Below, in pieces: positions 18,899 to 35,408 of a stretch of DNA of 64,000 bases (its first letter is position 1; each line of letters begins with the position of its first letter). Under the pieces are notes generated by a model. The model was not told the origin of the DNA, made no database searches, and was given only the letters and a program-made list of their open reading frames with translations. The position numbers were made by a program, and so were the translations under genes. Origin of the DNA: Alphaproteobacteria bacterium (GTDB lineage Bacteria; Pseudomonadota; Alphaproteobacteria; SMXP01). Location: the NCBI GenBank assembly GCA_965214255.1, contig OZ243948.1:1974803-2038802 (forward strand), given 5' to 3'.

Positions 18899-20866
18899 AT
18901 GAAGATCATGGACAACGACCGGGAGCCGGAGGCGGCGAAGATGACGAAGCGGGCGCCGTCCCCCGTCAAGGAGACGGGCGGGTTGAAAGACTTGCTGCGC
19001 TGGCCCGTCCGCCCGTTCGCGCGGACATGGCTGACGAGCCCGACCGTCGCCGTTCTCGCTCTCGGCCTGGGCCTGACCTTCGCGGGGCTGTCCGACGCAG
19101 CGTGGAGCATGTGGCTCGACATGTGGCTCACCGGCGCGGGGTTGGCTCTCGTCGGGTTCGTCATCGTCAAGGAGGGCCTCCTTTGGCGCTGGATGGACAG
19201 ACGGTTGCGGGCCGAGGAACGCGAGCATGCGGCCAAGGCGCTTGCGGACGAGCGCAGCCGCACGGCGCAGGAGTTGACGAAGAGGCTGGCGCAAGCGCTG
19301 GCCGAGGAACGCGCACGCTCGGATCGGGCGTTGACGGAGTCGCTGGCGGCGGAGCGCGAGCATGCGGCCAAGGCGCTTGCGGACGATCGCGCCCGCGCGG
19401 CCAAAGCGCTGGCCGAGGAACGCGACCGTGCGGGGCAGGAGTTGACGAAGACGTTGGCAGAGGCTCTGGCGGAGGAGCGCGCCCGTGCGGAGCAGGAGTT
19501 GGCGAAGACGTTGGCGCAAGCGCTGGCCGAGGAACGCGCACGCTCGGATCGGGCGTTGACGGAGTCGCTGGCGGCGGAGCGCGAACATGCGGCCAAGGCG
19601 CTTGCGGACGATCGCGCCCGCGCGGCCAAAGCGCTGGCCGAGGAACGCGACCGTGCGGGGCAGGAGTTGACGAAGACGTTGGCGGCGGAACGCGCCCGCG
19701 CGGATCGGGCGTTAACGGAGTCGTTGGCGACGGAACGCCGCCGCGCGAGGCGGGAGTTGACCAAGGCGCTGGCGGCGGAGCGCCGCGCCGCGGGGCGGGC
19801 GTCGACGGAGGCGCCCGGCCAACCCGCAATCACCGTCGGCGTCGCCTGTTACAACGCCGCCCCCTATCTCGAACAGTGCATCGGCTCGCTGCTCAAACAG
19901 ACCTTCGGCGACTTCGAGATCGTCGCCGTCGACGACGGCTCGACGGACGACACCGCGGCGATACTGGACGAGTTCGCGCGGACAAGCGACCGGCTGCGCG
20001 TGTTTCACCAGGGCAACGAGGGGCCGGGCCCCGCCAGGAACCTCATTCTCGAAGCGGCCCGGGGCGAATATATCACCTTCGTGGACGCCGACGACTGGCT
20101 GGCGCCCCACTGTCTCGAAGCGGTCCATGACCGCGCCGTTCGCGACGATCTGGACATCCTGTGTTTCGGCTGGGTTCTTGTCGACCATGACGGCGGCGGC
20201 AAGATCGCGCGCCGGTCGGATTACAAGAAGCTCCGCTTCGACCGCCCCGACGAGATGCGGCGGCATGCCTTTGCCGGGCGGATCAAAGCGATAGGCTGCG
20301 CCTCGCTGGTCCGCGCCGCCCTGTTCCATGACCACGGCCTGCGCTATCCGGCCTGTTGGCATGAAGACATGTCCGTGACGCCTTTTCTGTATTTCTACGC
20401 GCAGCGGCACGGATATCTGGACGACGAGTTGTATTTTTGGCGCAAGAGACCGGAGTCGATCACCCACCGCGCGGTCGGCAAGGACCATATCGACGGCATG
20501 ATCGGGGCGTTCCATGAATGGAAGACCCGCCTATTGAGCGAAGGCCGGTTCGACGACTTTCGCGCCTCGTTCGTTGCCGGCGTTTTTGCCTACATGTCCT
20601 ACTTGCTCGGACGCATCGAGGATTCGGATGTCGACCCCGCCCCCCTGGTCGCGTATTTGAGGAACGAAGCGGCGGCGTTCCCGGAGTTGAGGAAATATCG
20701 ACAATATCTTCCCCCCGAGGAAATCCAAGATTACGCGAAGGTGATAGAGACCCTGGTGGACAACGGTCAGGCCGCGTCTGCCGTCTCCGCGCCCTCGCGG
20801 CGTCGGGGACGGGCGGCCGCTGAAAAAGATGTCCGGTCGCCCCCCCCCGCATTGAGCGGCGATTGA
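18899..20866 (+). CDS. Membrane hairpin - 208-aa helical stalk - GT2 glycosyltransferase
   Basis: 655 aa from the ATG at 18899 (MKIMDND). Two predicted TM helices are LTSPTVAVLALGLGLTFAGL and LTGAGLALVGFVIV. An E/R/A-rich repeat runs aa 100-307. The GT2 core has ITVGVACYN...VAVDDGSTDDT...FVDADDW. Confidence 0.85.
   Translation: MKIMDNDREPEAAKMTKRAPSPVKETGGLKDLLRWPVRPFARTWLTSPTVAVLALGLGLTFAGLSDAAWSMWLDMWLTGAGLALVGFVIVKEGLLWRWMDRRLRAEEREHAAKALADERSRTAQELTKRLAQALAEERARSDRALTESLAAEREHAAKALADDRARAAKALAEERDRAGQELTKTLAEALAEERARAEQELAKTLAQALAEERARSDRALTESLAAEREHAAKALADDRARAAKALAEERDRAGQELTKTLAAERARADRALTESLATERRRARRELTKALAAERRAAGRASTEAPGQPAITVGVACYNAAPYLEQCIGSLLKQTFGDFEIVAVDDGSTDDTAAILDEFARTSDRLRVFHQGNEGPGPARNLILEAARGEYITFVDADDWLAPHCLEAVHDRAVRDDLDILCFGWVLVDHDGGGKIARRSDYKKLRFDRPDEMRRHAFAGRIKAIGCASLVRAALFHDHGLRYPACWHEDMSVTPFLYFYAQRHGYLDDELYFWRKRPESITHRAVGKDHIDGMIGAFHEWKTRLLSEGRFDDFRASFVAGVFAYMSYLLGRIEDSDVDPAPLVAYLRNEAAAFPELRKYRQYLPPEEIQDYAKVIETLVDNGQAASAVSAPSRRRGRAAAEKDVRSPPPALSGD
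19196..19819 (+). repeat. Stalk-coding repeat region (11/15/19-residue ER-x-R-A units), with a 225-bp tandem duplication
   Basis: Positions 19291-19458 match 19516-19683 with a single mismatch. The offset is 225 bp, or 75 aa (15+11+11+19+19). Confidence 0.9.
20840..20848 (+). repeat. Homopolymeric C9 tract (in the 3' tail of the 18899-20866 ORF)
   Basis: Read directly as ccggtcg-C9-gc. It is homologous to the ccggtcg-Cn context of the cassettes at 28373 and 30808. Confidence 0.9.
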
Positions 20867-21090
20867 CCGGATCCCCGCATATTTCCGGGGTGCCGTCCAT
20901 GAGTCGAACGGATTCGGAGACGAGTGAGGGAAAGACCCCCCCCCGGCGTGACCGCTCCGTTTTTCCGCCGCCCGGTCTTGCCCGTTCGGGCAGGACATAG
21001 TACCAGACATGGTACCGGACATGGCGGCGTCATCGCGGCGTCTTCCTCCGGGAGACATCCGCGCTTGCGCGAAAGTCATAAAGATAAGTC
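20867..21090 (+). promoter_or_regulatory. Junction cassette copy 1 (head remnant, C9 at 20936-20944, dyad TGCCCG-tt-CGGGCA at 20979-20992, 12-mer direct repeats at 20993-21024)
   Basis: It aligns by eye with 23740-23936, 28290-28520 and 30723-30935. It has 2.5 units of RGACATRGTACC. Its function is unknown. Confidence 0.4.
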
Positions 21091-23739
21091 ATGGAGATCA
21101 TGGACAACGGTCGCGACGCGCCGAAGGCGATGGAGGAAGCGCCCGTCGAGGCGCGCGGCATGAGAGACTTGTCGCAGCGCCCAGCCCGCGCGTTCATGCG
21201 CCATTGGCTGGCGAGTCCGACCGTCGCCGTTCTCGCTCTCGGCCTGGGCCTGACCTTCGCGGGGCTGTCCGACCTGGCGTCGAGCATGGGGCTCGACATG
21301 TGGCTCGCCGGGGCGGGGTTGGCTCTCGTCGGTCTGGTCATCTTCAAGGAGAGCGCCGTTTGGCGCTGGATGCGCGAGCGGGACCTGGAGATCGAGCGCG
21401 AGCGCGCGTCGCGGGAATTGAGAGAAGCGCTGGCGGCGGAACGCGACCGTGCGAGGCGGGCGTTGGGGCAAGCTCTGGCGGAGGAACGCGCCCGCGCGGA
21501 GCAAGGGTTGACGAGGACATCCGGCCAACCCGCAATCACCGTCGGCGTCGCCTGTTACAACGTCGCGCCCTATCTCGAACGATGTATCGGCTCGCTGCTC
21601 GACCAGACCTTCGACGACTTCGAGATCGTCGCCGTCGACGACGGGTCGGCGGACGACACCGCCTCGATCCTCGACGGGTTGGAACGCGCAAGCGGCAAGG
21701 TCCGCGTGCTTCGCCAGGAAAACAGGGGTCTGGGCGCCGCCAGGAACCGTATTCTCGAACAGGCCCGGGGCGAATATATCACCTTCGTGGACGGCGACGA
21801 CTGGCTGGCGCCCCACTGTCTCGAAGCGGTCCATGACCGCGCCGTTCGCGACGATCTGGACATCCTGTGTTTCGGCTGGGTTCTTGTCGACCATGACGGC
21901 GGCGGCAAGATCGCGCGCCGGTCGGATTACAAGAAACTCCGCTTCGACCGCCCCGACGAGATGCGGCAGAACGCCTTTGCCGGGCGGATCAAAGCGATAG
22001 GGTGCGCCTCGCTGGTCCGCACCGCCCTGTTCCACGACCACGGCCTGCGCTATCCGGCCTGTCTGCATGAAGACATGTACGTGACGCCTTTTCTGTATTT
22101 CTACGCCCAGCGGCACGGACGCCTGGACGACGATTTGTATTTCTGGCACAAGAGACCGGATTCGATCACCCAACGAGCGGTCGGCAAGGACCATATCGAC
22201 GGCATGGTCGGGGCGCTCCATTCATGGAAGGGCCGGTTATGGGCCGAGGGCAAGTTCGACGATTTCCGCGCCTCGTTCGTTGCCGGCCTCTTTGCCTACA
22301 TGTCCTACTTCCTCGCACGCATCGAGCGTTCGGACGGCGACCGCGACGCCCTGGTCGCGTATTTGAGGGACGAAGCGGCGGCGTTCCCGGAGTTGAGGAA
22401 ATACAAGCACTATCTTTCCCCCGAGGAAATCCGATATTACGCGAAGGCGATAGAGACCCTGGTGGACAACCGCCGGCCCGCCGCCGCCCGAAAACTGTCT
22501 CTGTTATATCTGCCGGGGTTTCATGAGGTCGAGAAGCTGGAAGACCAGTACGCCCGCATGCTCTGGTACGTTTCTCCCATGTTGGAGGACGTGGGGACGA
22601 TTTCTCTGGCGACGGGGTTCGCCCCTCCCGCCGCGTTGGCGCTCCCGGACTATGCCGACCCCGCCGTCGCCGACCTGAAAGACGGCTTCGAGGGTCTCAT
22701 CGATTATTTCGACGCGGACGACCTCGACGCCTGGCGTCGGCGTCTGGATGCGGCGGACATCGTCCTCCACTGGGATACGGCCTCGCCCTTTTCCCGAAGA
22801 GAGGACATCAAGTCCGCGCTTGCTGCCAAGAAAGTCTACCAGGTCGACCCGGTAAACTGGTTGTGGGCCGGAGACCTCTACCTTTTTCTCTCCCATGACC
22901 ACAACGGCGCCGCCCGCCAAGACCTGGCGGCGTCCCGGGACAAGTTCGCGGGGATGCTCGACGACATCGGCCGCCATGACAAGGCGTACGTGTTCGGCAC
23001 CGGCCCGTCTCTGGGTCGGGTCATGGACATGGACCTGTCCGACGGCGTGGCCATCGCCTGCAACAGCATGGTCAGGAACCGCCCTCTTATGAAACACCTG
23101 CGCCCGAAAATCATCGTCGCGGCCGACCCCATATTCCATGCGGGGTTTTCCCGCTACGCCGGCGTCTTCCGGCGGCATCTGTGCGAGGCGCTGGACGACC
23201 ACGGCTGTTATCTGGTGGTGTTGTCCCGCGACTACCGGCTCTACATGCGCCATCTCCCCGCCCGGTTCCGGGACCGGCTCATCGGCATCCCGTCCCGCAA
23301 GAGCGAAACCCCGAGCCTGTGTCTCTCCGACGATTTCACCGCCTCCACCACGCGGAACGTCCTGACGTTTTTGATGCTCCCGCTGGCGTGCACCCTGGCC
23401 GGGGAGGTGAACATCGCCGGCTGCGACGGGCGAAAGCTTGAAGACGACCGATATTTCTGGGACCACCACCGGGAGTCGCAGATCAACGACGAGATGGACT
23501 CCATCAAAAAAGCGCACCCGTCCTTTTTCGACAAGGTCGACTACAACGATTACTATCGCGAGCATGTCGCGGTGCTCGAAAAGTGGCTGACCGCGGGAGA
23601 GGAAACAGGCAAAGTGTTCCGCAACCTCACGCCGTCGCATATTCCCTGTCTCGAAAGCAGGTCGAAGCCGCATTCGCTCGTATCGCGGGCGCTCGCGCGT
23701 CTTGGCGCTCGCGCCGCGTCGGCGAGGGGCGGACGATGA
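21091..23739 (+). CDS. Membrane hairpin - 51-aa stalk - GT2 - DUF115 fusion protein
   Basis: 882 aa (MEIMDNG...). It has the same TM hairpin, a short stalk (aa 95-145) and a GT2 core (VAVDDGSADDT, FVDGDDW). From ~aa 467 (AARKLSLLYLPGFHEVEKLEDQY) it carries a DUF115 module near-identical to 17641-18888. Confidence 0.85.
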   Translation: MEIMDNGRDAPKAMEEAPVEARGMRDLSQRPARAFMRHWLASPTVAVLALGLGLTFAGLSDLASSMGLDMWLAGAGLALVGLVIFKESAVWRWMRERDLEIERERASRELREALAAERDRARRALGQALAEERARAEQGLTRTSGQPAITVGVACYNVAPYLERCIGSLLDQTFDDFEIVAVDDGSADDTASILDGLERASGKVRVLRQENRGLGAARNRILEQARGEYITFVDGDDWLAPHCLEAVHDRAVRDDLDILCFGWVLVDHDGGGKIARRSDYKKLRFDRPDEMRQNAFAGRIKAIGCASLVRTALFHDHGLRYPACLHEDMYVTPFLYFYAQRHGRLDDDLYFWHKRPDSITQRAVGKDHIDGMVGALHSWKGRLWAEGKFDDFRASFVAGLFAYMSYFLARIERSDGDRDALVAYLRDEAAAFPELRKYKHYLSPEEIRYYAKAIETLVDNRRPAAARKLSLLYLPGFHEVEKLEDQYARMLWYVSPMLEDVGTISLATGFAPPAALALPDYADPAVADLKDGFEGLIDYFDADDLDAWRRRLDAADIVLHWDTASPFSRREDIKSALAAKKVYQVDPVNWLWAGDLYLFLSHDHNGAARQDLAASRDKFAGMLDDIGRHDKAYVFGTGPSLGRVMDMDLSDGVAIACNSMVRNRPLMKHLRPKIIVAADPIFHAGFSRYAGVFRRHLCEALDDHGCYLVVLSRDYRLYMRHLPARFRDRLIGIPSRKSETPSLCLSDDFTASTTRNVLTFLMLPLACTLAGEVNIAGCDGRKLEDDRYFWDHHRESQINDEMDSIKKAHPSFFDKVDYNDYYREHVAVLEKWLTAGEETGKVFRNLTPSHIPCLESRSKPHSLVSRALARLGARAASARGGR

Positions 23740-23936
23740 CCGAACGACGGCCTCCGAGACCCCCCCCCCGCGCCGCGCCCGCAGGCGCTCCCCCGCTCGG
23801 CCTTGAGCGCTTTCGGGGTTTCCGCTCCGTTTTCCCGCCGCCCGGTCTTGCCTGTGCGGGCGGGACATGGTACCGGACACGGTGCTGGACAGGGGGCGTC
23901 GTCGCGGCGTCTTTCCATTGGGCGGGGTCAAGGGTC
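23740..23936 (+). promoter_or_regulatory. Junction cassette copy 2 (C10 at 23760-23769, dyad TGCCTG-tg-CGGGCG at 23849-23862)
   Basis: It is homologous to the other cassette copies and ends in caagggtcATG, the start of the next ORF. Confidence 0.4.
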
Positions 23937-26900
23937 ATGAACCGAACAGGTGCGGCGATGAGCGAGGGAAAGACCGGTCCGCGCGCCCGCGCGGCTCGGG
24001 CGATGAGCGAAACGTCCGGTCGACCCGCGATCACCGTCGGCGTTCCCTGTTACAACGTCGCCCCCTATCTCGAACGATGTCTCGGCTCGCTGCTCGACCA
24101 GACCTTCGAAGACTTCGAGATCGTCGTCGTCAACGACGGGTCGACGGACGACACCGCCTTGATCCTCGACGAGTTTGCGCGGACAAGCGGCAGGATGCGC
24201 GTGCTTCACCAGGACAACAGGGGTCTGGGCCCCGCCAGGAACCGCGTTCTCGAAGCGGCCCGGGGCGAGTATGTCACCTTCGTGGACGGCGACGACTGGC
24301 TGGCGCCGCACTGTCTCGAAGCGGCCCATGACCGCGCCGCTCGCGACGATCTGGACATCCTGTGTTTCGGCTGGGTTCTTGTCGACCATGACGGCGCCCG
24401 AGCGGTTGGGAAGCGCCACGATCATTTGAAATTCCGTTTCGACCGCCCCGACGAACTGCGGCGGCATGCCTTTACCGGGCTGCTCAACCTGATGTCTTGC
24501 GCCTCGCTGGTCCGCACCGCCCTGTTCCATGACCACGGCCTGCGCTATCCGCCCTGTTGGCATGAAGACCTGTACGTGACGCCCTTTCTGCATTTGTACG
24601 CGCAGCGGCACGGATATCTGGACGACGGGTTGTATTTCTGGCGCAAGAGATCGGAGTCGATCACCCAACGAGCGGTCGGCAAGGACCATATCGACGGCAT
24701 GATCGGGGCGTTCCATTCATGGAAAGGCCGGTTATGGGCCGAGGGCCGGTTCGACGACTTTCGCGCCTCGTTCGTTGTCGGCGTCTTTGCCTACATGCTC
24801 CAATTGCTCCGGCGCATCGAGGCCTCGGACGTCGACCGCGGCGCCCTGGTGGCGCATTTGAGGGACGAAGCGGCGGCGTTCCCGGAGTTGAGGACATACA
24901 AGCACTATCTTTCCCACGGGGAACTCCGACATTACGCGAAGGTCATAGAGACCATGGTGGACAACCGCCGGGATGCGGCGGCGCCGAAGACGACGAAGCG
25001 GGCGCCGTCCCCCGTCAAGGAGACGGGCGGGTTGAAAGACTTGCTGCGCTGGCCCGTCCGCCCGTTCGCGCGGACATGGCTGACGAGTCCGACCGTCGCC
25101 GTTCTCGCTCTCGGCCTGGGCCTGACCTTCGCGGGGCTGTCCGGCTTGGCGTCGAGCATGTGGCTCGACATGGGTCTCGACATGGGTCTCGACATGTGGC
25201 TCACCGGGGCGGGGTTGGCTCTCGTCGGTCTGGTCATCGTCAAGGAGGGCCTCCTTTGGCGCTGGATGGACAGACGGTTGCTATCGGAAGAGCGCGAGCG
25301 TGCGGCCAAGGCGCTGGCGGACGAGCGCGACCGCGCGGGACAAGCGCTGGCCGAGGAACGCGCACGCTTGGATCGGGCGTTGGACCAAGGGTTGGCGGCG
25401 GAACGCGCCCGTGCGGGGCGGGAGTTGACGAAGACGCTGGCCGAGGAACGCGCACGCGCAGCCAAGGCGCTTGCGGACGAGCGCGCCCGTGCGGAGCAGG
25501 AGTTGACGAAGGCGTTGGGGCAAGCTCTGTCGGAGGAACGCGCCCGCGCGGACCGGGCGTTGACGGAGTCCTTGGCGGCGGAGCGCGAGCATGCGGCCAA
25601 GGCGCTTGCGGACGAGCGCAGCCGCACGGCGCAGGAGTTGACGAAGACGTTGGCCCAAGCTCTGTCGGAGGAACGCGCCCGTGCGGAGCAGGAGTTGACG
25701 AAGGCGTTGGGGCAAGCTCTGTCGGAGGAACGCGCCCGCGCGGACCGGGCGTTGACGGAGTCCTTGGCGGCGGAGCGCGAGCATGCGGCCAAGGCGCTTG
25801 CGGACGAGCGCGCCCGCGCGGCGCAGGAGTTGACGGAGTCGCTGGCGGCGGAGCGCGAACATGCGGCCAAGGCGCTGGCGGACGAGCACGCCCGCGCGGA
25901 GCAGGAGTTGGCGAAGACGTTGGCGCAAGCGCTGGCCGAGGAACGCGCACGCGCGGATCGGGAATTGAAAAAAGCGGTTGCCGCGGAGCGCGAGCATGCG
26001 GCCAAAGCGCTGGCCGAGGAACGCGACCGTGCGGGGCAGGAGTTGACGAAGACGTTGGCGCAAGCTCTGTCGGAGGAACGCGCACGCGCGGATCGGGCGT
26101 TAACGGAGGGGTTGGCGACGGAACGCGGCCGCGCGAGGCGGGAGTTGACCAAGGCGCTGGCGGCGGAGCGCCGCGCCGCGGGGCGGGCGTCGACGGAGGC
26201 GCCCGGCCAACCCGCAATCACCGTCGGCGTTCCCTGTTACAACGTCGCGCCCTATCTCGAACGATGTATCAGGTCGCTGCTCGAGCAGACCTTCGACGAC
26301 TTCGAGATCGTCGCCGTCGACGACGGGTCGACGGACGACACCGGGTCGCTGCTCGACGAGTTGGCGCGCGAAAGCGTCAGGATGCGCGTGCTTCACCAGG
26401 ACAACAGAGGTCTGGGCCCCGCCAGGAACCGTATTCTCGAACAGGCCCGGGGCGAGTATGTCACCTTCGTGGACGCCGACGACTGGCTGGCGCCCCACTG
26501 TCTCGAGACGGTCCATGACCGCGCCGTTCGCGACGATCTGGACATCCTGTGTTTCGGCTTCGTTCGAGTCGACAGTGACAGCGGCCGGGAAATCGCGCGC
26601 CGACAGGATTATAAGGGTCTCCGCTTCGACCGCCCCGGCGAGATACGGCAGCATGCCTTTGCCGGGCGGATCAACCTGATGTCTTGCGCCTCGCTGGTCC
26701 GCGCCGCCCTGTTTCACGACCACGGCCTGCGCTATCCGGCTTGTCTGCATGAAGACTTGTACGTGACGCCCTTTCTGCATCTGTACGCGGAGCGCCACGG
26801 ATATCTGGACGGCGAGTTGTATTTTTGGCTTGAAAGACCGGATTCGATCACCCGACGAGCGGTCGGCAGGGACCATATCGACGGCATGATCGGGGCGTTC

Positions 26901-28289
26901 CATGAATGGGAAACCCGCCTGTCGAGAGAAGGTCGGCTCGACGACTTTCGCGACGCGGTCGTTGCCGCCCTTTTTCGTTACATTTCCCACTTGCTCCGGC
27001 GCATCGAGGCTTCGGATGTCGACCGCGCCGCCCTGGCCGCGTATTTGAGGGACGAAGCGGCGGCGTTCCCGGAGTTGAGGGCATACAAGCACTATCTTTC
27101 CCCTGAGGAAATCCAAGATTACGCGAAGGCGATAGAGATTATAGACAACGGTCACGACGCGGCCGCCGAAATGGGAAACGGCCTCGATACGGCCCCCGCC
27201 GCGGAGCAAGGGTTGACGAGGACGTCCGGCCAACCCGCGATCACCGTCGGCGTCGCCTGTTACAACGCCGCACCCTATCTCGAACGATGTATCGGGTCGC
27301 TGCTCGAGCAGACCTTCGACAATTTCGAGATCGTCGCCGTCGACGACGGCTCGACGGACCGCACCGGGTCGATACTGGACGAGTTTGCGCGGACAAGCGC
27401 CAAGGTCCGCGTGTTTCACCAGGAGGACAACGAGGGGCCGGGCCCCGCCAGGAACCTCATTCTCGAACAGGCCCGGGGCGAATATATCACCTTCGTGGAC
27501 GCCGACGACTGGCTGGCGCCCCACTGTCTCGAGGCGGTCCATGACCGCGCCCTTCGCGACGATCTGGACATCCTGTGTTTCGGCTTCGTTCGAGTCGACC
27601 ATACCAGCGGCCGAGTGATCGAGCGCCGGTCGGATTATAAGGGTCTCCGCTTCGACCGCCCCGGCGAGATACGGCGGCATGCCTTTGCCGGGCGGCTCAA
27701 GCTGATGACGTGCGCCTCGCTGGTCCGCGCCGCCCTGTTCCACGACCACGGCCTGCGCTATCCGGCCTGTCTGCATGAAGACATGTACGTGACGCCTTTT
27801 CTGCATCTGTACGCGGAGCGCCACGGATATCTGGACGGCGAGTTGTATTTTTGGCGCAGGAGACTGGAGTCGATCTCCCAACGAGCGCTCGGCAAGGACC
27901 ATATCGACGGCACGATCGGCGCTTTCCATTCATGGAAGGGCCGCCTGTCGAGCGAAGGCCGGTTCGACGACTTTCGCGCCTCGTTCGTTAGCGGCCTTTT
28001 TCTTTACATGTTCCACTTGCTCCGGCGCATCGAGCGTTCGGACATCGACCGCGAAGCCCTGGTCGCGTATTTGAGGGACGAAGCGCGGGCGTTCCCGGAG
28101 TTGAGGGCATACAAGCACTATCTTTCCCCCGAGGAAATCCAAGATTACGCGAAGGCGATAGAGATTATAGACAACGGTCACGACGCGGCCGCCGAAACGG
28201 GAAACGGCCTCGATACGGCCCCCGCCGCGCTGCCGCATCGTTCGGACTTGCCCGTCCGGAAAAAACGCAGGGCCCGAAGGTCCGCCTGA
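23937..28289 (+). CDS. GT2 - membrane hairpin - 313-aa stalk - GT2 - GT2 triple-glycosyltransferase fusion
   Basis: ~1450 aa from the ATG at 23937 (MNRTGAAMSEGK). The track ORF starts at 23583 inside the cassette. The three GT2 cores carry VVVNDGSTDDT/FVDGDDW, VAVDDGSTDDT/FVDADDW and VAVDDGSTDRT/FVDADDW. The TM hairpin is at ~25080-25250 and the stalk spans aa 445-757. Confidence 0.8.
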   Translation: MNRTGAAMSEGKTGPRARAARAMSETSGRPAITVGVPCYNVAPYLERCLGSLLDQTFEDFEIVVVNDGSTDDTALILDEFARTSGRMRVLHQDNRGLGPARNRVLEAARGEYVTFVDGDDWLAPHCLEAAHDRAARDDLDILCFGWVLVDHDGARAVGKRHDHLKFRFDRPDELRRHAFTGLLNLMSCASLVRTALFHDHGLRYPPCWHEDLYVTPFLHLYAQRHGYLDDGLYFWRKRSESITQRAVGKDHIDGMIGAFHSWKGRLWAEGRFDDFRASFVVGVFAYMLQLLRRIEASDVDRGALVAHLRDEAAAFPELRTYKHYLSHGELRHYAKVIETMVDNRRDAAAPKTTKRAPSPVKETGGLKDLLRWPVRPFARTWLTSPTVAVLALGLGLTFAGLSGLASSMWLDMGLDMGLDMWLTGAGLALVGLVIVKEGLLWRWMDRRLLSEERERAAKALADERDRAGQALAEERARLDRALDQGLAAERARAGRELTKTLAEERARAAKALADERARAEQELTKALGQALSEERARADRALTESLAAEREHAAKALADERSRTAQELTKTLAQALSEERARAEQELTKALGQALSEERARADRALTESLAAEREHAAKALADERARAAQELTESLAAEREHAAKALADEHARAEQELAKTLAQALAEERARADRELKKAVAAEREHAAKALAEERDRAGQELTKTLAQALSEERARADRALTEGLATERGRARRELTKALAAERRAAGRASTEAPGQPAITVGVPCYNVAPYLERCIRSLLEQTFDDFEIVAVDDGSTDDTGSLLDELARESVRMRVLHQDNRGLGPARNRILEQARGEYVTFVDADDWLAPHCLETVHDRAVRDDLDILCFGFVRVDSDSGREIARRQDYKGLRFDRPGEIRQHAFAGRINLMSCASLVRAALFHDHGLRYPACLHEDLYVTPFLHLYAERHGYLDGELYFWLERPDSITRRAVGRDHIDGMIGAFHEWETRLSREGRLDDFRDAVVAALFRYISHLLRRIEASDVDRAALAAYLRDEAAAFPELRAYKHYLSPEEIQDYAKAIEIIDNGHDAAAEMGNGLDTAPAAEQGLTRTSGQPAITVGVACYNAAPYLERCIGSLLEQTFDNFEIVAVDDGSTDRTGSILDEFARTSAKVRVFHQEDNEGPGPARNLILEQARGEYITFVDADDWLAPHCLEAVHDRALRDDLDILCFGFVRVDHTSGRVIERRSDYKGLRFDRPGEIRRHAFAGRLKLMTCASLVRAALFHDHGLRYPACLHEDMYVTPFLHLYAERHGYLDGELYFWRRRLESISQRALGKDHIDGTIGAFHSWKGRLSSEGRFDDFRASFVSGLFLYMFHLLRRIERSDIDREALVAYLRDEARAFPELRAYKHYLSPEEIQDYAKAIEIIDNGHDAAAETGNGLDTAPAALPHRSDLPVRKKRRARRSA
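25158..25205 (+). repeat. 12-bp in-frame microrepeat ATG-KGB-CTC-GAC, 4 units ([WG]LDM) in the inter-helix loop
   Basis: The DNA reads atgtggctcgac atgggtctcgac atgggtctcgac atgtggctcacc. Paralogous loops have 2 units (19109-19132, 21286-21309 and 28731-28754) or 3 units (34098-34133). Confidence 0.9.
25269..26207 (+). repeat. Stalk-coding repeat region, with a 192-bp tandem duplication
   Basis: Positions 25489-25619 are identical to 25681-25811 (131 nt by my alignment). The offset is 192 bp, or 64 aa (19+15+11+19). Confidence 0.9.
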
Positions 28290-28520
28290 CCGCGGCGGCT
28301 TCTTGAACTTGCAGGCAGGGTTATGAACCGAACGAATACGGCGATGAGCGAAGGAAAGACCGGCCCCGGTCGCCCCCCCCCGCGCGGCCCGCTCTTGCCC
28401 GCGCGGGCGGGACATAGTACCAGACATAATACCGGACACGGCGCCGGCAGGGGGCGTCGTCGCGGCGTCTTCCTCCGGGAGACATCCGCGCCGATGCGAA
28501 AGTCATAATGAGATAAAGTC
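28290..28520 (+). promoter_or_regulatory. Junction cassette copy 3 (MNRT-head remnant at 28323, C9 at 28373-28381, dyad TGCCCG-cg-CGGGCG at 28396-28409)
   Basis: It is homologous to the other copies. It contains the 61-aa track ORF 28323-28508, whose first 15 aa mimic the N-termini of the 23937 and 30936 ORFs. Confidence 0.4.
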
Positions 28521-30722
28521 ATGAAGATCATGGACAACGACCGGGAGCCGGAGGCGGCGAAGATGACGAAGCGGGCGCCGTCCCCCGTCAAGGAGACGGG
28601 CGGGTTGAAAGACTTGCTGCGCTGGCCCGTCCGCCCGTTCGCGCGGACATGGCTGACGAGCCCGACCGTCGCCGTTCTCGCTCTCGGCCTGGGCTTGACC
28701 TTCGCGGGCTTTTCCGGTGCGGCTTGGAACATGTGGCTCGACATGTGGCTCACCGGCGCGGGGTTGGCTCTCGTCGGGTTCGTCATCGTCAAGGAGGGCC
28801 TCCTTTGGCGCTGGATGGACAGACGGTCGCGGGTCGAGGAACGCGACCGCGCTTCGCGGGAATTGGCCCAAGCGCTTGCGGACGAGCGCAGCCGCGCGGA
28901 TCGGGAATTGAAAAAAGCGGTTGCCGCGGAGCGCGAGCATGCGGCCAAAGCGCTGGCCGACGAGCGCGCCCATGCGGGGCAGGAGTTGACGAAGACGCTG
29001 GCGCAAGCTCTGTCGGAGGAACGCGCCCGCGCGGATCGGGAATTGAAAAAAGCGGTTGCCGCGGAGCGCGAGCATGCGGCCAAAGCGCTGGCCGACGAGC
29101 GCGCCCATGCGGGGCAGGAGTTGACGAAGACGCTGGCGCAAGCTCTGTCGGAGGAACGCGCCCGCGCGGATCGGGAATTGAAAAAAGCGGTTGCCGCGGA
29201 GCGCGAGCATGCGGCCAAAGCGCTGGCCGACGAGCGCGCCCATGCGGGGCAGGAGTTGACGAAGACGCTGGCGCAAGCTCTGTCGGAGGAACGCGCCCGC
29301 GCGGATCGGGAATTGAAAAAAGCGGTTGCCGCGGAGCGCGAGCATGCGGCCAAAGCGCTGGCCGACGAGCGCGCCCATGCGGGGCAGGAGTTGACGAAGA
29401 CGCTGGCGCAAGCTCTGTCGGAGGAACGCGCCCGCGCGGATCGGGAATTGAAAAAAGCGGTTGCCGCGGAGCGCGAGCATGCGGCCAAAGCGCTTGCGGA
29501 CGAGCGCCGCCGTGCGGGGCAGGAGTTGACGAAGGCGTTGGAGCAGGCATTGGCGGCGGAGCGCGACCGCACGGACAAAGCGCTGGCCGAGGAACGCGCC
29601 CGCGCGACCGAGGCGCTTGCGGACGAGCGCGCCCGCGCGGGGCAGGCGCTGTCGAAGGCGGTGGGCAAGGTCGATATCACCGTCGGCGTCGCCTGTTACA
29701 ACGCCGCTCCCTATCTCGAACGATGTATCGGGTCGCTGCTCGAGCAGACCTTCGACAATTTCGAGATCGTCGCCGTCAACGACGGCTCGACGGACCGCAC
29801 CGCGTCGATACTGGACGAGTTGGCGCGGACAAGCGGCAAGGTCCGCGTGTTTCACCAGGAGGACAACAAAGGGCAGGGGCTCGCCAGGAACCTCATTCTC
29901 GAACAGGCCGGGGGCGAATATATCACCTTCGTGGACGCCGACGACTGGCTGGCACCCCACTGTCTCGAGGCGGTCTATCGCCGCGCCCTTCGCGACGATC
30001 TGGACATCCTGTGCTTCGGCTGGGTTCTTGTCGACGAGTCCGCCGCTCGAGTGGTCGAGAAGCGCCACGATCATTTGAAACTCCGCTTCGACCGCCCCGG
30101 CGAACTGCGGCAGCATGCCTTTGCCGGACGGCTCAATCTGTTAACCGGCGCCTCGCTGGCCCGCGCCGCCCTGTTCCACGACCACGGCCTGCGCTATCCG
30201 GAGGGCCCCCATGACGACATGTACGTGACGCCCTTTCTGCATTTCTACGCGGAGCGGCACGGATATCTGGACGGCGAGTTGTATTTTTGGAGCGAAAAGC
30301 CGGATTCGGCCTCCCGACGATCGCTTGGCGAGGACCATATCGACAGCATGTTCCGGGCGTTCCATGAATGGAAGACCCGCCTGTCGAGAGAAGGCCGGTT
30401 CGACGACTTTCGCGCCTCCTTCGTTGCGGGCGTTATCGCGTACATGTTCCAATTGCTCCGCCGCATCGAGGCTTCGGATGTCGACCGCGAAGGACGGACG
30501 GCGTATTTGACCCATGAAGCGCGGGCGTTCCCGGAGTTGAGGAAATACAAGCAATATCTTACCCCCAACAAAATCCGATATTACGCGAAGGCGATAGAGA
30601 TTATAGACGACAGTCACGACGCGGCCGCCGAAACGGGAAACGGCCGCGATACGACCCCCGCCGCGCTGCCGCATCGTTCGGTGCCCGTCCGGAAAAAACG
30701 CCGGGCCCGAAGGTCCGCCTGA
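28521..30722 (+). CDS. Membrane hairpin - 283-aa stalk - GT2 glycosyltransferase
   Basis: 733 aa. The first ~100 aa are near-identical to the 18899 ORF. The stalk spans aa 100-382. The GT2 core has VAVNDGSTDRT and FVDADDW. Confidence 0.85.
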   Translation: MKIMDNDREPEAAKMTKRAPSPVKETGGLKDLLRWPVRPFARTWLTSPTVAVLALGLGLTFAGFSGAAWNMWLDMWLTGAGLALVGFVIVKEGLLWRWMDRRSRVEERDRASRELAQALADERSRADRELKKAVAAEREHAAKALADERAHAGQELTKTLAQALSEERARADRELKKAVAAEREHAAKALADERAHAGQELTKTLAQALSEERARADRELKKAVAAEREHAAKALADERAHAGQELTKTLAQALSEERARADRELKKAVAAEREHAAKALADERAHAGQELTKTLAQALSEERARADRELKKAVAAEREHAAKALADERRRAGQELTKALEQALAAERDRTDKALAEERARATEALADERARAGQALSKAVGKVDITVGVACYNAAPYLERCIGSLLEQTFDNFEIVAVNDGSTDRTASILDELARTSGKVRVFHQEDNKGQGLARNLILEQAGGEYITFVDADDWLAPHCLEAVYRRALRDDLDILCFGWVLVDESAARVVEKRHDHLKLRFDRPGELRQHAFAGRLNLLTGASLARAALFHDHGLRYPEGPHDDMYVTPFLHFYAERHGYLDGELYFWSEKPDSASRRSLGEDHIDSMFRAFHEWKTRLSREGRFDDFRASFVAGVIAYMFQLLRRIEASDVDREGRTAYLTHEARAFPELRKYKQYLTPNKIRYYAKAIEIIDDSHDAAAETGNGRDTTPAALPHRSVPVRKKRRARRSA
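28896..29540 (+). repeat. 135-bp (45-aa) in-frame tandem repeat, 4 perfect copies plus a diverging fifth
   Basis: The marker tcgggaattgaaaaaagcgg occurs at 28901, 29036, 29171, 29306 and 29441, exactly 135 bp apart. The copies at 28896-29030, 29031-29165, 29166-29300 and 29301-29435 read identically. Confidence 0.95.
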
Positions 30723-30935
30723 CCGCGGCGGCTTCTTGACTTGCAGGCAGGGTCATGATGAACCGGACAGGCGCAGAGGCGGGCGAAGGAAAGACCGGCC
30801 CCGGTCGCCCCCCCGCCGCGCGCCGGCGTGACCGCTCCGTTTTTCCGCAGCCTGGTCTTGCTCTTTCGGGCAGGACATAGTACCCGACAGGGGGGCGTCG
30901 TTACGGCGTCTTTCTTAACCTGATCAGGCAGGGTC
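30723..30935 (+). promoter_or_regulatory. Junction cassette copy 4 (C7 at 30808-30814, degenerate dyad at 30859-30872), flanked by imperfect direct repeats of the MNRT-head
   Basis: Head-like sequences caggcagggtcatg..aaccg...ggaaagaccgg occur at 30744-30798 and 30925-30976. The second one is the real start of the next ORF. Confidence 0.4.
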
Positions 30936-33900
30936 ATGAACCGAACGGATACGGCGATGAGCGAGGGAAAGACCGGTCCGCGCGGCGGCGCGGCTCGGGC
31001 GGTGAGCGAAACGTCCGGCCAACCCGCGATCACCGTCGGCGTCGCCTGTTACAACGTCGCGCCCTATCTCGAACAGTGCATAAGGTCGCTGCTCGACCAG
31101 ACCTTCGACGACTTCGAGATCGTCGCCGTCGACGACGGCTCGACGGACGACACCGCCTCGATACTGGACGAGTTGGCGCGGACAAGCGGCAAGGTCCGCG
31201 TGGTCCGCCAGGACAACGAGGGGCCGGGCGCCGCCAGGAACCGCATTCTCGAACAGGCCCGGGGCGAATATATCACCTTCGTGGACGCCGACGACTGGCT
31301 GGCGCCGCACTGTCTCGAAGCGGCCCATGACCGCGCCGCTCGCGACGATCTGGACATCCTGTGTTTCGGCTGGGTCCGCGTCGACCATGCCGCCGCCCGA
31401 GTGATCGAGCGCCGGTCGGATTATAAGGGTCTCCGCTTCGACCGCCCCGACGAGATACGGCAGAAAGCCATTGCCGGGCGGCTCAATCTGATGGTTTGCG
31501 CCTCGCTGTTCCGCACCGCCCTGTTCCACGACCACGGCCTGCGCTATCCGGCAGGTCTGTATGAAGACATGTACGTGACGCCCTTTCTGTATCTGTACGC
31601 GGAGCGGCACGGATATCTGGACGACGAGTTGTATTTCTGGCGCAAGAGACCGGATTCGATCACCCAACGAGCGGTCGGCAAGGACCATATCGACGGCATG
31701 GTCGGGGCGTTCCATGAATGGAAAGCCCGCCTGTCGAGGGAAGGCCGGTTCGGCGACTTTCGCGCTTCGTTCGTCCTCGGCGTTGTTGCCTACATGTCCC
31801 AATTGCTCCGGCGCATCGAGGATGCGGACGTCGACCGCGCGGCGCCGGTCCGCCGCCCCGTCGTTGGCGACGCCCTGGTGGCGTATTTGAGAGACAAGGC
31901 GCGGTCGTTCCCGGAGTTGGCGAAATATCGACAATATCTTTCCCTTCAGGAAACCCGTGCTTACGCAAAAGTCATAGAGATCATGGACGACGAGGACGCG
32001 GCGGGCGGGGACGAGCCGGCGTTCGTCGGCCAATACGAGCATCTGCGTTACGCCAACAAGGCCCTGCGGGACGCCCTGGCGGGCCTGGAGGTCAACGAGG
32101 ACCCGGGGACCGTCTTCGATTTTTGCTTCGCCCCCCTCAACGACTATCATGTACGCACGGCGGTCCCCATCGCGGACCGCCTTCGACGGCAGGGGTTCAG
32201 CGTCTGTTTCGTGGACTTCACGCGGGTGGGCCGCGACGAGGGCGTGCGAACGGCGGTCGCGGAGTTGGAGGAGGAACGCTGCCACGATATCTGCGCGTTC
32301 ATAGCCTCCAATCACGGCTTCAGAAACCTGATCGTGTTCAACGATTGGAGCATGCAGACGACGTATCCCCTGGTGCTGGACGCCCGAGACGCCGGGGCGG
32401 CGACGGTCGGCTTCGTCGAGGGGATAAACGATTTCAACGACGTCGACACGGGGCGCTGGCGCAACGCTTACCGCGCCGTCGAGTGGGTGCTTGGCGCCGG
32501 AAACGACGACCGCCAATACTTCCCGGGGTACGGGGGAAAGTTCCGGGTCGCCGGGTTCCCGCGCATCGCCGAGTCGCTCCGGCGCCCGCCGCCGCCGCCC
32601 GCCCGCGAGCGCGCGGTCATCAACGTCAATTTCACCTACGGCGTCCTGGAAGACCGGCGGGACGACTGGCTCGCCTCGGCGATAGAGGGGTGCCGGTTGG
32701 CGAACCTGGACTGGGTGATCTCCCGGCATCCGGCGGAGACGGGCGACCTTTCCGGGCGCCCGTCGGACCCGAGAGGGTTCGCGGACCTGATGGAGGAAAA
32801 CGCGGTCCTTATCAGCCGCTTCAGTTCGTGCATCGTCGAAGCCCTGGCCATGGGCCGCGCCGTCGTCTATCACAATCCGGATATCGAGAGGGTGGCGAAG
32901 TTTCAGGACCCACGCGGCGCTTACAGCGTCAGCCGCGACGCTCGAAGCCTGGCGGCCGCGCTCCGCTTCGAATTGGATCGACTGGGAAGCGTGCCGGCGC
33001 GCAGAAACGGGTTTCTGGCCCATCACTGCGACGTTTCCGCGAATTTCGACCCCTGTCAAAAGGCCGCTCGAATTTTAAGGCAAATCGACGAAGCGCCCCG
33101 GGGTCCGGCGCGGGACGCGGACGTGAACCCGTCTCCCGACTGGTTTCGCTGTTCGCGGGACCGGCATGCCGCGCTCGAGGAAACCCGCGTGGTCGCGGCA
33201 TTTCTCGACGACCTGCCCGCCGGCTCCGTCATGGTCGATGTCGGCGCGGCCAGCGGCGGCGCCCTTGCGCCGTTCCTGGAGCGGGAATGGAGAGTCTTCG
33301 CCTTCGAGCCCGACCCGGAGAACCGCGCGCGGCTGCAGCGAGAACACGGTCATCGCGCGCCGCTGACCGTCGACGCCCGCGCCCTCGGCGGCGAGCCCGC
33401 CGCCAGCGCCGCCTTCTACTCTTCCCGGGAGAGCCCATTCATCGGCAGTTTGCAGGCGTTCACCGACGGCCATGAGCGCGCCGGGGACGTCGAGGTGACG
33501 ACCTTGAGTCATGTGGCGAAGGAGCACGGCCTCCGACGGATCGACGTGCTCAAGATCGACGCCGAGGGGTACGATCTGATGGTGCTCGAGGGCGCGCCGT
33601 GGGACGAGATAAGGCCGCGGGTCATCGTCTGCGAATTCGAGGACGCCAAGACGACGCGGTTGGGCTACACGTTCCACGATCAGGCGAGGTTTCTGGCGGA
33701 CAAGGGCTACACGGTTTTCGTGAGCGAGTGGTATCCGGTCGTGCGCTACGGTATGCGGCACGACTGGCGGCGCCTGGCCCCCTACCCCTGCCGGCTGGAA
33801 AGCTCGAACGCATGGGGCAACCTGATCGCTTTCCGCTCGGCGCCGGATCCGGACGCTTTGAGGGCCGCCGTCGAGACGAGTCTCGGCAAGGCGGCGGAGG

Positions 33901-34466
33901 CGGCGCGGGTGACGAAGGGGCCGCCGCCGAAGGCGACGGAGGAGGCCGGAGGCCCCGTCGAGGCGCGCGGCATGAGAGACTTGTCGCAGCGCTCCGCCCG
34001 CGCGTTCATGCGCGATTGGCTGACGAGCCCGACCGTCGCCATGCTCGCTCTCGGCCTGGGCCTGACCTTCGCGGGGCTGTCCGACCTGGCGTCGAGCATG
34101 GGGCTCGACATGTGGCTCGACATGTGGCTCACCGGGGCGGGGTTGGCTCTCGTCGGGTTCGTCATCTTCAAGGAGAGCGTCGTTTGGCGCTGGATGCGCG
34201 AGCGGGACCGGGAGGTCGAGCGCGCCCGCGCGGACCGGGAATTGAAAGAAGCGCTGGCGGCGGAACGCCGCCGCGCGAGCCAGGCGTTGACCAAGGCGCT
34301 TGCGGACGAGCGCCGCCGCGCGGGGCAGGAATTGAAGAAGGCGGTGGCGGCGGAGCGCAAACGTGCCGAGCGGGCGTTGACCGAAACGTCGGTCCTCCCC
34401 GCCCTGCGGGGGGGGGGCGAGGCCGTCGTGACCTGTAGCGCGCCGCCGACGGACTTTCGAGAGTGA
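30936..34466 (+). CDS. GT2 - GT-B-like domain - FkbM-family methyltransferase - membrane hairpin - short stalk
   Basis: 1176 aa. The GT2 core has VAVDDGSTDDT and FVDADDW. The ~350-aa middle domain is of uncertain family; it contains ISRHPAE, and GT-B / capsule-synthesis-like is only a guess. The FkbM-like block is VDVGAASGG...VFAFEPDPEN...IDVLKIDAEGYDLMVLEG. The TM hairpin is at ~34020-34180 and is followed by a ~63-aa helical stalk. Confidence 0.8.
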   Translation: MNRTDTAMSEGKTGPRGGAARAVSETSGQPAITVGVACYNVAPYLEQCIRSLLDQTFDDFEIVAVDDGSTDDTASILDELARTSGKVRVVRQDNEGPGAARNRILEQARGEYITFVDADDWLAPHCLEAAHDRAARDDLDILCFGWVRVDHAAARVIERRSDYKGLRFDRPDEIRQKAIAGRLNLMVCASLFRTALFHDHGLRYPAGLYEDMYVTPFLYLYAERHGYLDDELYFWRKRPDSITQRAVGKDHIDGMVGAFHEWKARLSREGRFGDFRASFVLGVVAYMSQLLRRIEDADVDRAAPVRRPVVGDALVAYLRDKARSFPELAKYRQYLSLQETRAYAKVIEIMDDEDAAGGDEPAFVGQYEHLRYANKALRDALAGLEVNEDPGTVFDFCFAPLNDYHVRTAVPIADRLRRQGFSVCFVDFTRVGRDEGVRTAVAELEEERCHDICAFIASNHGFRNLIVFNDWSMQTTYPLVLDARDAGAATVGFVEGINDFNDVDTGRWRNAYRAVEWVLGAGNDDRQYFPGYGGKFRVAGFPRIAESLRRPPPPPARERAVINVNFTYGVLEDRRDDWLASAIEGCRLANLDWVISRHPAETGDLSGRPSDPRGFADLMEENAVLISRFSSCIVEALAMGRAVVYHNPDIERVAKFQDPRGAYSVSRDARSLAAALRFELDRLGSVPARRNGFLAHHCDVSANFDPCQKAARILRQIDEAPRGPARDADVNPSPDWFRCSRDRHAALEETRVVAAFLDDLPAGSVMVDVGAASGGALAPFLEREWRVFAFEPDPENRARLQREHGHRAPLTVDARALGGEPAASAAFYSSRESPFIGSLQAFTDGHERAGDVEVTTLSHVAKEHGLRRIDVLKIDAEGYDLMVLEGAPWDEIRPRVIVCEFEDAKTTRLGYTFHDQARFLADKGYTVFVSEWYPVVRYGMRHDWRRLAPYPCRLESSNAWGNLIAFRSAPDPDALRAAVETSLGKAAEAARVTKGPPPKATEEAGGPVEARGMRDLSQRSARAFMRDWLTSPTVAMLALGLGLTFAGLSDLASSMGLDMWLDMWLTGAGLALVGFVIFKESVVWRWMRERDREVERARADRELKEALAAERRRASQALTKALADERRRAGQELKKAVAAERKRAERALTETSVLPALRGGGEAVVTCSAPPTDFRE
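34408..34417 (+). repeat. Homopolymeric G10 tract near the 3' end of the 30936-34466 ORF
   Basis: Read directly as ctgc-G10-cgagg. It encodes RGGG in the linker after the stalk. Confidence 0.9.
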
Positions 34467-34475
34467 ACGCCCGCC

Positions 34476-35408
34476 ATGAGCGCCGTGTCCATCGTCATCC
34501 GCGCCCTGAACGAGGCCGCCCACCTGCCCGCGCTGTTCGACGGACTCGCCCGCCAGACCCGCAAGCCCGAGGAAGTCATCGTCGTCGATTCGGGCTCGAC
34601 CGACGACACGGTGGCCCTCGCCGAGCGCGCCGGGGCGCGCGTGATCGCGATCGCGCCGTCGGCCTTCACCTTCGGGCGCGCCCTCAATGTCGGCTGCGCC
34701 GCGGCGGCGGGCGAGCTTCTGGTGTTCACCAGCGCCCATGTCTATCCCGCCGACGAGTACTGGCTCGAGCGCTTGACCGCGCCGCTGGAGGCGCACGGCG
34801 ATACGGCCCTCGTCTACGGAGGCCAGACCGGCGACGAGCGCAGCGCCTTTTCCGAGTTGGAGATCATGCGGCGGTGGTTTCCCGCCGAGTCGGACCCCGA
34901 TCAGGCCCACCCCTTCTGCAACAACGCCAACTGCGCGGTGCGGGCCTCGGTGTGGGCGACGCATCCCTACGACGAGGAGTTGACCGGGCTCGAGGACATC
35001 GCGTGGGCCTTTCAGGTCCAGCAGGACGGCCATCGGATCCGCTACCAGGCCGACGCGGTCATCGTCCACGTGCATGAGGAACGGTTCGATCAAATCGTCA
35101 ATCGATACCGCCGGGAAGCGATCGCCCACAAGAGGATATTCGGCCATCACAGGATGTACGCCCCGGAGGCGCTCGGCCTGTTCGCCGCCAACACCGCGCG
35201 CGATTACCTCGCGGCCCTGCTGCAAGGCCGCTTTCTGGCCAATTTGTGGGGGATTCCGAAATTCCGCTTCGCCCAGTTCTGGGGAACGTGGCGCGGCTTT
35301 CGTCAGGTCGGCGAACCGTCGCGGGTGCTGAAACGCCGCTTCTATTATCCGCGGGGGTTCGTCTGGCGGCGCGGCAAAGCCCGGTTCGGGCCGTGGGGGC
35401 GCCCGTGA
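34476..35408 (+). CDS. Glycosyltransferase family 2 (divergent from the seven paralogous modules)
   Basis: 310 aa with VSIVIRALNEAAHL...VIVVDSGSTDDT...GLEDIAW. It lies in the same reading frame as the preceding ORF, separated by a TGA plus 9 nt. Confidence 0.85.
   Translation: MSAVSIVIRALNEAAHLPALFDGLARQTRKPEEVIVVDSGSTDDTVALAERAGARVIAIAPSAFTFGRALNVGCAAAAGELLVFTSAHVYPADEYWLERLTAPLEAHGDTALVYGGQTGDERSAFSELEIMRRWFPAESDPDQAHPFCNNANCAVRASVWATHPYDEELTGLEDIAWAFQVQQDGHRIRYQADAVIVHVHEERFDQIVNRYRREAIAHKRIFGHHRMYAPEALGLFAANTARDYLAALLQGRFLANLWGIPKFRFAQFWGTWRGFRQVGEPSRVLKRRFYYPRGFVWRRGKARFGPWGRP

Follow-up and report, generated by a model that had tools for sequence, protein, structure and literature searches.

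In the coiled-coil rulers described for bacterial glycan assembly, the chain terminator is carried at the distal end of a coiled coil, the polymerase stays proximal to the membrane, and the length of the coil sets the length of the chain (PMC11231755). This is the case for WbdD, whose coiled coil determines O-polysaccharide chain length in Escherichia coli O9a and Klebsiella pneumoniae O3 (PMC11231755). The distribution of the modules among polypeptides varies with the serotype (WbdD, WbbB, ORF6-O7, ORF7-O4; PMC11231755), and in WbbB (K. pneumoniae O12) and ORF6 of O7 glycosyltransferase family 2 (GT2) modules and a modifying module are linked via a coiled coil in a single polypeptide (PMC11231755). 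The gene cluster analysed here lies in a 64,000-nt stretch of DNA (hereafter the window) of an alphaproteobacterium (Alphaproteobacteria bacterium, SMXP01; assembly GCA_965214255.1, contig OZ243948.1, positions 1,974,803 to 2,038,802 of the forward strand) and encodes five proteins, named A to E, in which a transmembrane (TM) hairpin is followed by a repeat-built stalk. These stalks are tentatively read as membrane-rooted, parallel, right-handed coiled-coil spacers that may form an architectural variant of the glycan-assembly ruler.

The layout of the cluster follows a logic similar to that of WbdD, but its parts differ. The anchor of WbdD is a C-terminal amphipathic helix, whereas the stalks of the window start from a TM hairpin; WbdD bears a methyltransferase/kinase terminator at the distal end, where the proteins of the window have a GT2; each WbdD system has one ruler, compared to five stalk proteins in the cluster; and a WbdD-type pathway includes a Wzm/Wzt transporter, none of which was found near the cluster. 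WbdD has a trimeric, heptad-type coiled coil about 20 nm long. Proteins C and E, as well as two of their relatives (P0234 and P0264), share with WbbB and ORF6 the succession of glycosyltransferase modules, spacer and other enzyme, but in the window a TM hairpin stands between the proximal modules and the coil, the coil is made of 11-, 15- and 19-residue units, and the distal modules are GT2 paralogues.

The cluster belongs to a glycan-biosynthesis island (about 17.6-37.8 kb of the window) with every gene on the + strand. Protein A (655 aa; 18899..20866) consists of a TM hairpin (19031-19195), a stalk of 208 aa (19196-19819) and a GT2 (19820-20866), and D (733 aa; 28521..30722) has the same order (hairpin, 28653-28817; stalk of 283 aa, 28818-29666; GT2, 29667-30722). 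In B (882 aa; 21091..23739), the hairpin (21208-21372), a stalk of 51 aa (21373-21525) and the GT2 (21526-22530) are followed by a domain similar to the neighbouring protein U (22531-23739). Protein C (1450 aa from the ATG at 23937; 23937..28289) starts with GT2 no. 1 (24021-25025), continues with the hairpin (25080-25268) and a stalk of 313 aa (25269-26207), and ends with GT2 no. 2 (26208-27230) and GT2 no. 3 (27231-28289); the database gene call (P0134) starts further upstream and gives 1517 aa, the stalk count being independent of the start. Protein E (1176 aa; 30936..34466) carries its enzymes in front of the anchor, with a GT2 (31020-32024), a so-called mid domain (about 32061-33125) and an FkbM methyltransferase (about 33237-33713), followed by the hairpin (34020-34196), a stalk of 63 aa (34197-34385), a tail of 26 aa (34386-34463) and a TGA stop.

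Counted from the WRWM motif after the anchor to the [QK][PV][AD]ITVG motif of the GT2, the stalks measured 208 (A), 51 (B), 313 (C) and 283 (D) residues, and 89 residues followed WRWM in E (63 helical and 26 in the tail), reproducing exactly the counts of an initial annotation made from the sequence of the window. With a rise of 0.15 nm per residue, continuous helices of these lengths would span 31 (A), 8 (B), 47 (C), 42 (D) and 9 nm (E). The initial annotation had arranged them as a five-step length ladder between an identical anchor and an identical catalytic module. The lengths are unequal numbers without statistical content and reduce to a short pair and a long trio, and the identity of the flanking modules was overstated, as the GT2s share 69-83% identity and the anchors fall into two subtypes with 65-73% identity between them.

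Ala made up about 28% of the stalks, Glu 15-17%, Arg 14-17% and Leu 11-13%, and Pro was nearly absent. The stalks parsed fully into units of 11, 15 and 19 residues of the form L(xxxL)0-2-a-x-E-R-x-R/H-A, with a conserved E-R pair in each. In A, C and D, the Fourier spectrum of hydrophobicity peaked at 3.73-3.75 residues per turn, with a power of 154-285 compared to shuffle maxima of 48-51 ± 12 (three to six times higher), and a peak at 3.76 was obtained for P0001 on the LIVMF scale. On a helical wheel of 3.75 residues per turn, the centre of the seam (0 degrees) was occupied at 92% by L/I/V/M/F, whereas one flank (-60 degrees) contained 72% E/D and no basic residues and the other (+30 degrees) 59% Arg. 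The ratio 15/4 = 3.75 is a pronounced right-handed coiled-coil periodicity, with 11/3 and 19/5 units as its natural neighbours (PMC4786415). The stalks carry a non-heptad, right-handed (pentadecad) coiled-coil signature, and predicted helical segments of 51-313 residues with a 3.75 seam supply the extended coiled-coil segment in a pathway protein that is found in ruler systems. The same 15/4 periodicity mixed with 11/3 and 19/5, and with charges near the core, is shared by the pentadecad/hendecad right-handed coils of trimeric autotransporter stalks such as YadA, but these are extracellular adhesins without sequence kinship to the stalks of the window.

On these grounds the stalks look like ordered helical rods rather than disordered linkers, and drift in a low-complexity linker, an alternative listed in the initial annotation, is contradicted by the 11/15/19 units and by a 3.75 periodicity far above that of shuffled sequences. 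Each stalk could also be a monomeric single alpha-helix (SAH) of the ER/K type, acting as a stiff spacer without oligomerisation. The composition (28% Ala, 15-17% Glu and 14-17% Arg) and the many possible i to i+4 E/R pairs would suit such a helix, but SAH domains lack a continuous hydrophobic seam such as the one found here (92% L/I/V/M/F at its centre, with 12% Leu overall), and the units are conserved as L..aL..ER and not as alternating charge blocks, which makes a single helix very unlikely.

Parallel coiled-coil pairs make e-g' contacts, and antiparallel pairs make e-e' and g-g' contacts. As the acidic and basic residues of the stalks occupy opposite flanks of the seam, E-R' bridges would form in a parallel in-register arrangement, and like charges would clash in an antiparallel one. 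From this charge layout we infer that a parallel in-register rod is more likely than a hairpin. A counter-indication came from structure prediction, run on a single chain of protein A with AlphaFold2 (AF2) in monomer mode from a 13-sequence alignment. The model (mean predicted local distance difference test score, pLDDT, of 76) placed TM1 at residues 48-66, let TM2 run unbroken into a helix at 71-177, and ended in a confidently predicted GT2. The stalk helix scored 70-82, but a low-confidence break (residues 178-189, pLDDT below 50) divided it into two helices of nearly equal length (71-177 and 190-302). The initial annotation had treated the stalks as continuous helices and had proposed AlphaFold-Multimer as a check. 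Continuity agrees with the 3.75 periodicity, the 92% seam and the E-R pair lying astride it but not with this mid-stalk break, which is the fold-back outcome that the annotation had named as counting against its reading, although a monomer model cannot settle the matter.

The two near-equal helices suggest an intramolecular antiparallel hairpin similar to those of SMC and Rad50, in which the GT2 would sit next to the anchor at any stalk length and only the length of the protruding spike would vary. This suggestion is weakened by the monomer mode, which can offer no partner chain, by the scope of the output (helix boundaries and pLDDT rather than the packing of the two helices) and by the unreliability of AF2 helix-orientation calls for coiled coils (PMC11651203). 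Moreover, the break falls within an ordinary repeat unit, AGQELTKTLAEA, which is helical elsewhere; no hinge or unique central motif is present, and the centre of the D stalk consists of three identical repeats. Antiparallel pairing would set like charges face to face, and the 40-52-residue stalks of B and of the relatives (two to three units) are too short to fold back. A hairpin is thus unlikely.

In every anchor, two Gly/Ala-rich hydrophobic helices are separated by an acidic loop of 11-19 residues without K/R, and six to seven K/R are found on each outer flank (30 residues before TM1 and 20 after TM2), compared to zero in the loop. According to the positive-inside rule, K/R on both outer flanks and none in the loop place both termini of the anchor in the cytoplasm, and in C, where the hairpin stands between GT2 modules that depend on nucleotide sugars, both ends are required to lie on the same, cytoplasmic side. 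The two anchor subtypes (A, C and D, 92-97% identical; B and E, 90% identical) track the stalk class, the former carrying long stalks (208, 313 and 283 residues) and the latter short ones (51 and 63). The loop itself, predicted to be periplasmic, varies in length from 11 aa (A, B and D) through 15 (E and P0001) to 19 (C), and carries a 12-bp micro-repeat encoding (LDMW/LDMG)n, seen at 25152-25196 and 34087-34130 and also in the loops of A, B and D.

Relatives carrying the anchor-stalk module differed in both stalk length and distal content. P0004 has the order GT2-anchor followed by a 110-residue stalk with a free C-terminus, the end of the gene lying mid-contig, while P0005, P0007 and P0011 are GT2-mid-anchor proteins with a tail of 36 residues. 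In L002, from a gammaproteobacterial metagenome-assembled genome, GT2-mid-anchor is followed by 40 residues (two 15-residue units) and a C-terminal domain of about 290 aa. A C-terminal domain of this type also ends P0234 (GT2-GT2-(MptE-like)-FkbM-anchor, then 52 residues) and P0264 (FkbM-GT2-mid-anchor, then 145 residues, or about nine units), and showed only a sub-threshold similarity to sulfotransferases (Sulfotransfer_3, E = 0.011). The L..aL..ER unit is kept in the stalks of L002, P0234 and P0264, which also showed a periodicity of 3.71-3.75, and less so in P0004, which peaked at 4.85; the short tails of P0005 and P0006 gave no signal above shuffles. Judged from these sequences, structural selection acts on the 15-residue unit in distant lineages, different enzymes or nothing at all can occupy the distal tip, and very long stalks are specific to the lineage of the window.

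Searches for further relatives returned few proteins. A profile of the anchor and early stalk gave no match at E <= 0.001 against a set of 5.8 billion proteins, the candidates being swamped by low-complexity words. An exhaustive HMMER search used a profile into which three full-length relatives had brought GT2 columns; its top 150 matches were mostly multi-GT2 proteins, from which the rarity of the anchor module cannot be read, and the only new anchor-bearing relatives that the search gave were P0165, P0234 and P0264. The GT2 profile found only one close relative, L002, among the GTDB species representatives, a set that did not include the genome of the window itself. In the JGI metagenomes, nothing was found with the anchor, and two distant loci, both without anchors, were found with the mid domain.

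Stalk length is evolutionarily labile, and the long arrays arose through very recent tandem duplication. In D, Tandem Repeats Finder detected a period of 135 bp (45 aa) with 5.3 copies and 95% matches, and three tandem 135-nt copies (29001..29405) share 100% DNA identity. The stalk of A contains a 225-nt duplication (94% identity), and that of C has 135- and 192-bp periodicities. Repeat-copy differences were about half synonymous and half non-synonymous. The GT2 DNA is 81-94% identical between copies, the whole cluster being a recent duplication array. Genes A, B and D begin with M[KE]IMDN (18899, 21091 and 28521), which shows homology to IE[IT][IM](V)DN, the sequence closing every GT2 module (e.g. 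at about 24938), and this alignment of gene starts with GT2 tails identifies [anchor-stalk-GT2] as the duplication unit. The array thus originated by tandem duplication of this unit, with units still fused in C and elsewhere parted by paralogous leaders of about 200 nt, and the gene boundaries reflect which unit junctions retained a stop and a leader.

Comparison between strains covered the A orthologue and the end of E, as short-read assemblies stop at the borders of the cluster. In a metagenome sister strain that has 97% identical flanks and keeps the succession of U, A and the start of B, the stalk of A measured 141 residues instead of 208, and in strain L082 that of E was 4 aa shorter through the replacement of a 15-residue unit by an 11-residue unit. 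The orthologue comparison that the initial annotation had called for therefore indicates that length is unconserved, with 36-145 residues among relatives. Each assembly of the four sister strains (L001, L082, L083 and L084) ends where the cluster meets its flanks, as would be expected for a real repeat array, and the repeat content probably kept the cluster out of most assemblies, leaving its diversity under-sampled. Modulo 15, the stalk lengths of A, C and D equal 13 and those of B and P0001 equal 6; these shared values give no evidence of selection for helical phase, as the offset between randomly chosen units is a multiple of 15 in 29-47% of cases.

This lability cuts both ways, as it could reflect neutral drift or diversifying tuning. 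If repeat instability is neutral, the coil merely oligomerises or tethers the enzymes, perhaps co-assembling paralogues, and the lengths are a by-product of recombination that is not read out. Such a reading, somewhat less likely than the spacer reading but to be taken seriously, agrees with the three identical repeats of D, with the 94% duplication of A, with a difference of 141 against 208 residues despite 97% identical flanking DNA, and with the recent origin of the array and the non-significance of the shared modulo 15. Relatives also function with stalks of 36-52 residues or with free-ended ones, and the even split between synonymous and non-synonymous differences gives no strong sign of purifying selection on single copies. 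However, the L/E-R pattern and the reading frame are preserved in every repeat copy, across up to 939 nt, alpha- and gammaproteobacterial relatives share the 15-residue unit, the long and short classes correlate with the anchor subtype, and a functionless rod of 30-47 nm would be costly.

Concerning the modules held by the stalks, the GT2s of A to E matched Pfam PF00535 with E = 1e-36 to 1e-115, and that of the adjacent gene F with 5e-20, making all of them members of the GT2 family. Pairwise identity among the seven related modules was 69-83%. Residues D39, D43, D89, D91 and D92 (VDxDDW) are invariant in all seven and in the relatives, as is D183, and H181 and E182 are present in at least 90% of the sequences. 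Fold searches matched 5hea, 6p61 and TarS with probability 1.00, and the nearest solved folds were polymer-acting GT-A enzymes (CgT, TarS, RmlT, TarP and K4CP), with CgT and a Leptospira GT2 outranking TarS, TarP and RmlT. This likeness fits action on a long polymer, without identifying the polymer. The wall-teichoic-acid glycosyltransferases TarS, TarP and RmlT act on long lipid-linked polymers as oligomers, but they oligomerise via globular or short helical C-terminal domains and have neither a TM hairpin nor a long stalk.

The claim of the initial annotation that all five stalks lie between an anchor and a GT2 holds for A to D, whereas the stalk of E ends at a conserved stop and F is a separate gene. 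The stalk of E is followed by its 26-residue tail, the TGA, 9 nt and the ATG of F in the same frame (34464-34478), and the stop, spacer and start are all kept in strain L082, which identifies a genuine gene boundary and rules out a read-through or pseudogene. The spacing is consistent with translational coupling and not with a broken fusion. Protein F itself (34476..35408) is a GT2 of a different subfamily, with only 29-37% identity to the other modules.

Overall, several observations weigh against the spacer reading. Besides the break in the model of A, copies 1-3 of the D repeat have 0 nucleotide differences and the array is young; length is unconserved, with the shortened stalks of A and E in sister strains and a span of 36-145 residues among relatives compared to up to 313 in the window; the stalk of E is free-ended with nothing at its tip, as in several relatives; and the distal GT2s share 72-83% identity with the proximal ones, which leaves the cluster with no recognisable terminator. 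Where a ruler would carry its terminator, the cluster thus has paralogous GT2s, to which B adds a U domain with weak sialyltransferase-like fold matches, while the FkbM methyltransferase of E is proximal. No ABC transporter, flippase or initiating transferase is encoded in the 64-kb window, nor was a Wzm/Wzt-type export association found within it. The ruler design seen by the initial annotation in the anchor-stalk-enzyme arrangement therefore stands only in part: the layout matches that of known rulers (PMC11231755) and distant relatives bear another distal enzyme, but the distal modules are GT2 paralogues and the window lacks a transporter and an initiating enzyme.

If the spacer reading is correct, each stalk would be a membrane-rooted, parallel, in-register, non-heptad right-handed rod with a mean of 15 residues per four turns, the base of which would be fixed on the cytoplasmic face by the two-helix TM hairpin. 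The rod would oligomerise the enzyme and hold its far-end module about 8-47 nm off the membrane, i.e. a GT2 in A and D, a GT2-GT2 pair in C and a GT2 with a U domain in B, while the modules N-terminal to the anchor (GT2 no. 1 of C; GT2, mid and FkbM methyltransferase of E) would sit at the membrane. The set may then act as a multi-enzyme complex for a long glycan growing away from the membrane, in which distal modules would act only once a chain had grown far enough to reach them, as a variant of the WbdD/WbbB principle, and stalk length could be reset quickly via unequal recombination among 33-, 45-, 57- and 135-bp repeats. An anchor and a variable stem also hold the enzyme off the membrane in type II glycosyltransferases of the Golgi (tail - TM - stem - catalytic domain), although these eukaryotic enzymes are lumenal, have stems that are mostly flexible and not repeat-built, and show no homology to the proteins of the window. 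A ruler function of stalk length is plausible; the oligomeric extended state, a membrane-anchored polymer as acceptor and a functional effect of height are all three steps that we infer. A more specific version, in which paralogous glycosyltransferases at heights of about 8, 31, 42 and 47 nm act height-dependently on one membrane-anchored glycan as a multi-ruler system, with quanta of 15 residues reset by recombination, is improbable.

Other genes of the island may take part in the synthesis and transfer of a sugar donor. Protein U (17587..18888), upstream of A, is a two-domain protein without known family and a paralogue of the C-terminal domain of B, which is 90% identical to it. About 27 homologues were found, all unnamed; a GTGPS motif in this family has invariant T, G and P, with the first G and the S conserved in 90% or more of the proteins. 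AF2 modelled U confidently (pLDDT 89) as two Rossmann-like domains, with weak fold matches, the sialyltransferases ST6GALNAC2 and CstII having the top probability. Downstream of F, a trio of precursor-pathway genes (35387..37754) encodes a cytidylyltransferase (CTP_transf_3), a D-2-hydroxyacid dehydrogenase and an SDR. The modelled fold matches, together with the cytidylyltransferase, hint that U may belong to a candidate new family of cytidine monophosphate (CMP)-sugar transferases. The mid domain of E is 61-63% identical to its relatives, and on an otherwise unrelated, low-GC metagenome contig (L088, 6318-11020) a mid-domain protein adjoins the same cytidylyltransferase/2-hydroxyacid dehydrogenase/SDR trio, which suggests that the mid domain and the trio may form a conserved unit for donor synthesis and transfer. 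Neither U, the mid domain nor the distal domain of the relatives had significant sequence matches in Pfam, NCBIfam or the PDB.

The island is flanked by conserved alphaproteobacterial housekeeping genes (SecB, Tim44, MltA and an SMP-30-like protein on one side; Smr and HslUV on the other), and the flanks also include his genes. Within the cluster, B, C, D and E each have a paralogous leader of about 130 nt in front of the ATG (about 20960-21090, 23800-23936, 28390-28520 and 30800-30935), with two conserved inverted repeats, GTCTTGCCCGTTCGGGCAGGAC and GTACCAGACATGGTAC. The leaders matched neither an Rfam family nor a promoter or terminator consensus, and across the cluster region no Rfam family was found and promoter-like or terminator-like sites were not in excess. 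All five homopolymer runs of at least 9 nt in the 64-kb window lie inside the cluster (20840-20848, 20936-20944, 23760-23769, 28373-28381 and 34408-34417), including C9/C10 tracts that precede the start codons of B, C and D by 140-177 nt and a G10 run in the tail of E. Phase variation was unsupported for both: the G10 tract has the same length in L082 and encodes RGGG in frame, and the tract between A and B is not a simple length variant in L001.

Coiled-coil rulers are the accepted means of length setting in ABC (ATP-binding cassette)-transporter-type pathways, and the known cases have one ruler with a dedicated terminator at its tip. The present cluster differs from them in its five stalk proteins, with TM-hairpin bases, non-heptad rods and ordinary GT2s at the tips. 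If stalk length is not read out, the cluster would be an example of unstable repeats inflating a spacer, and a caution on inferring function from length. If it is read out, the stalks, spanning 51 to 313 residues, would constitute a natural experiment on the ruler principle and a route to rapid diversification of surface glycans. Should the multi-ruler version hold, strains could rapidly diversify the chain length or block pattern of the glycan through a heritable, fast-evolving height code.

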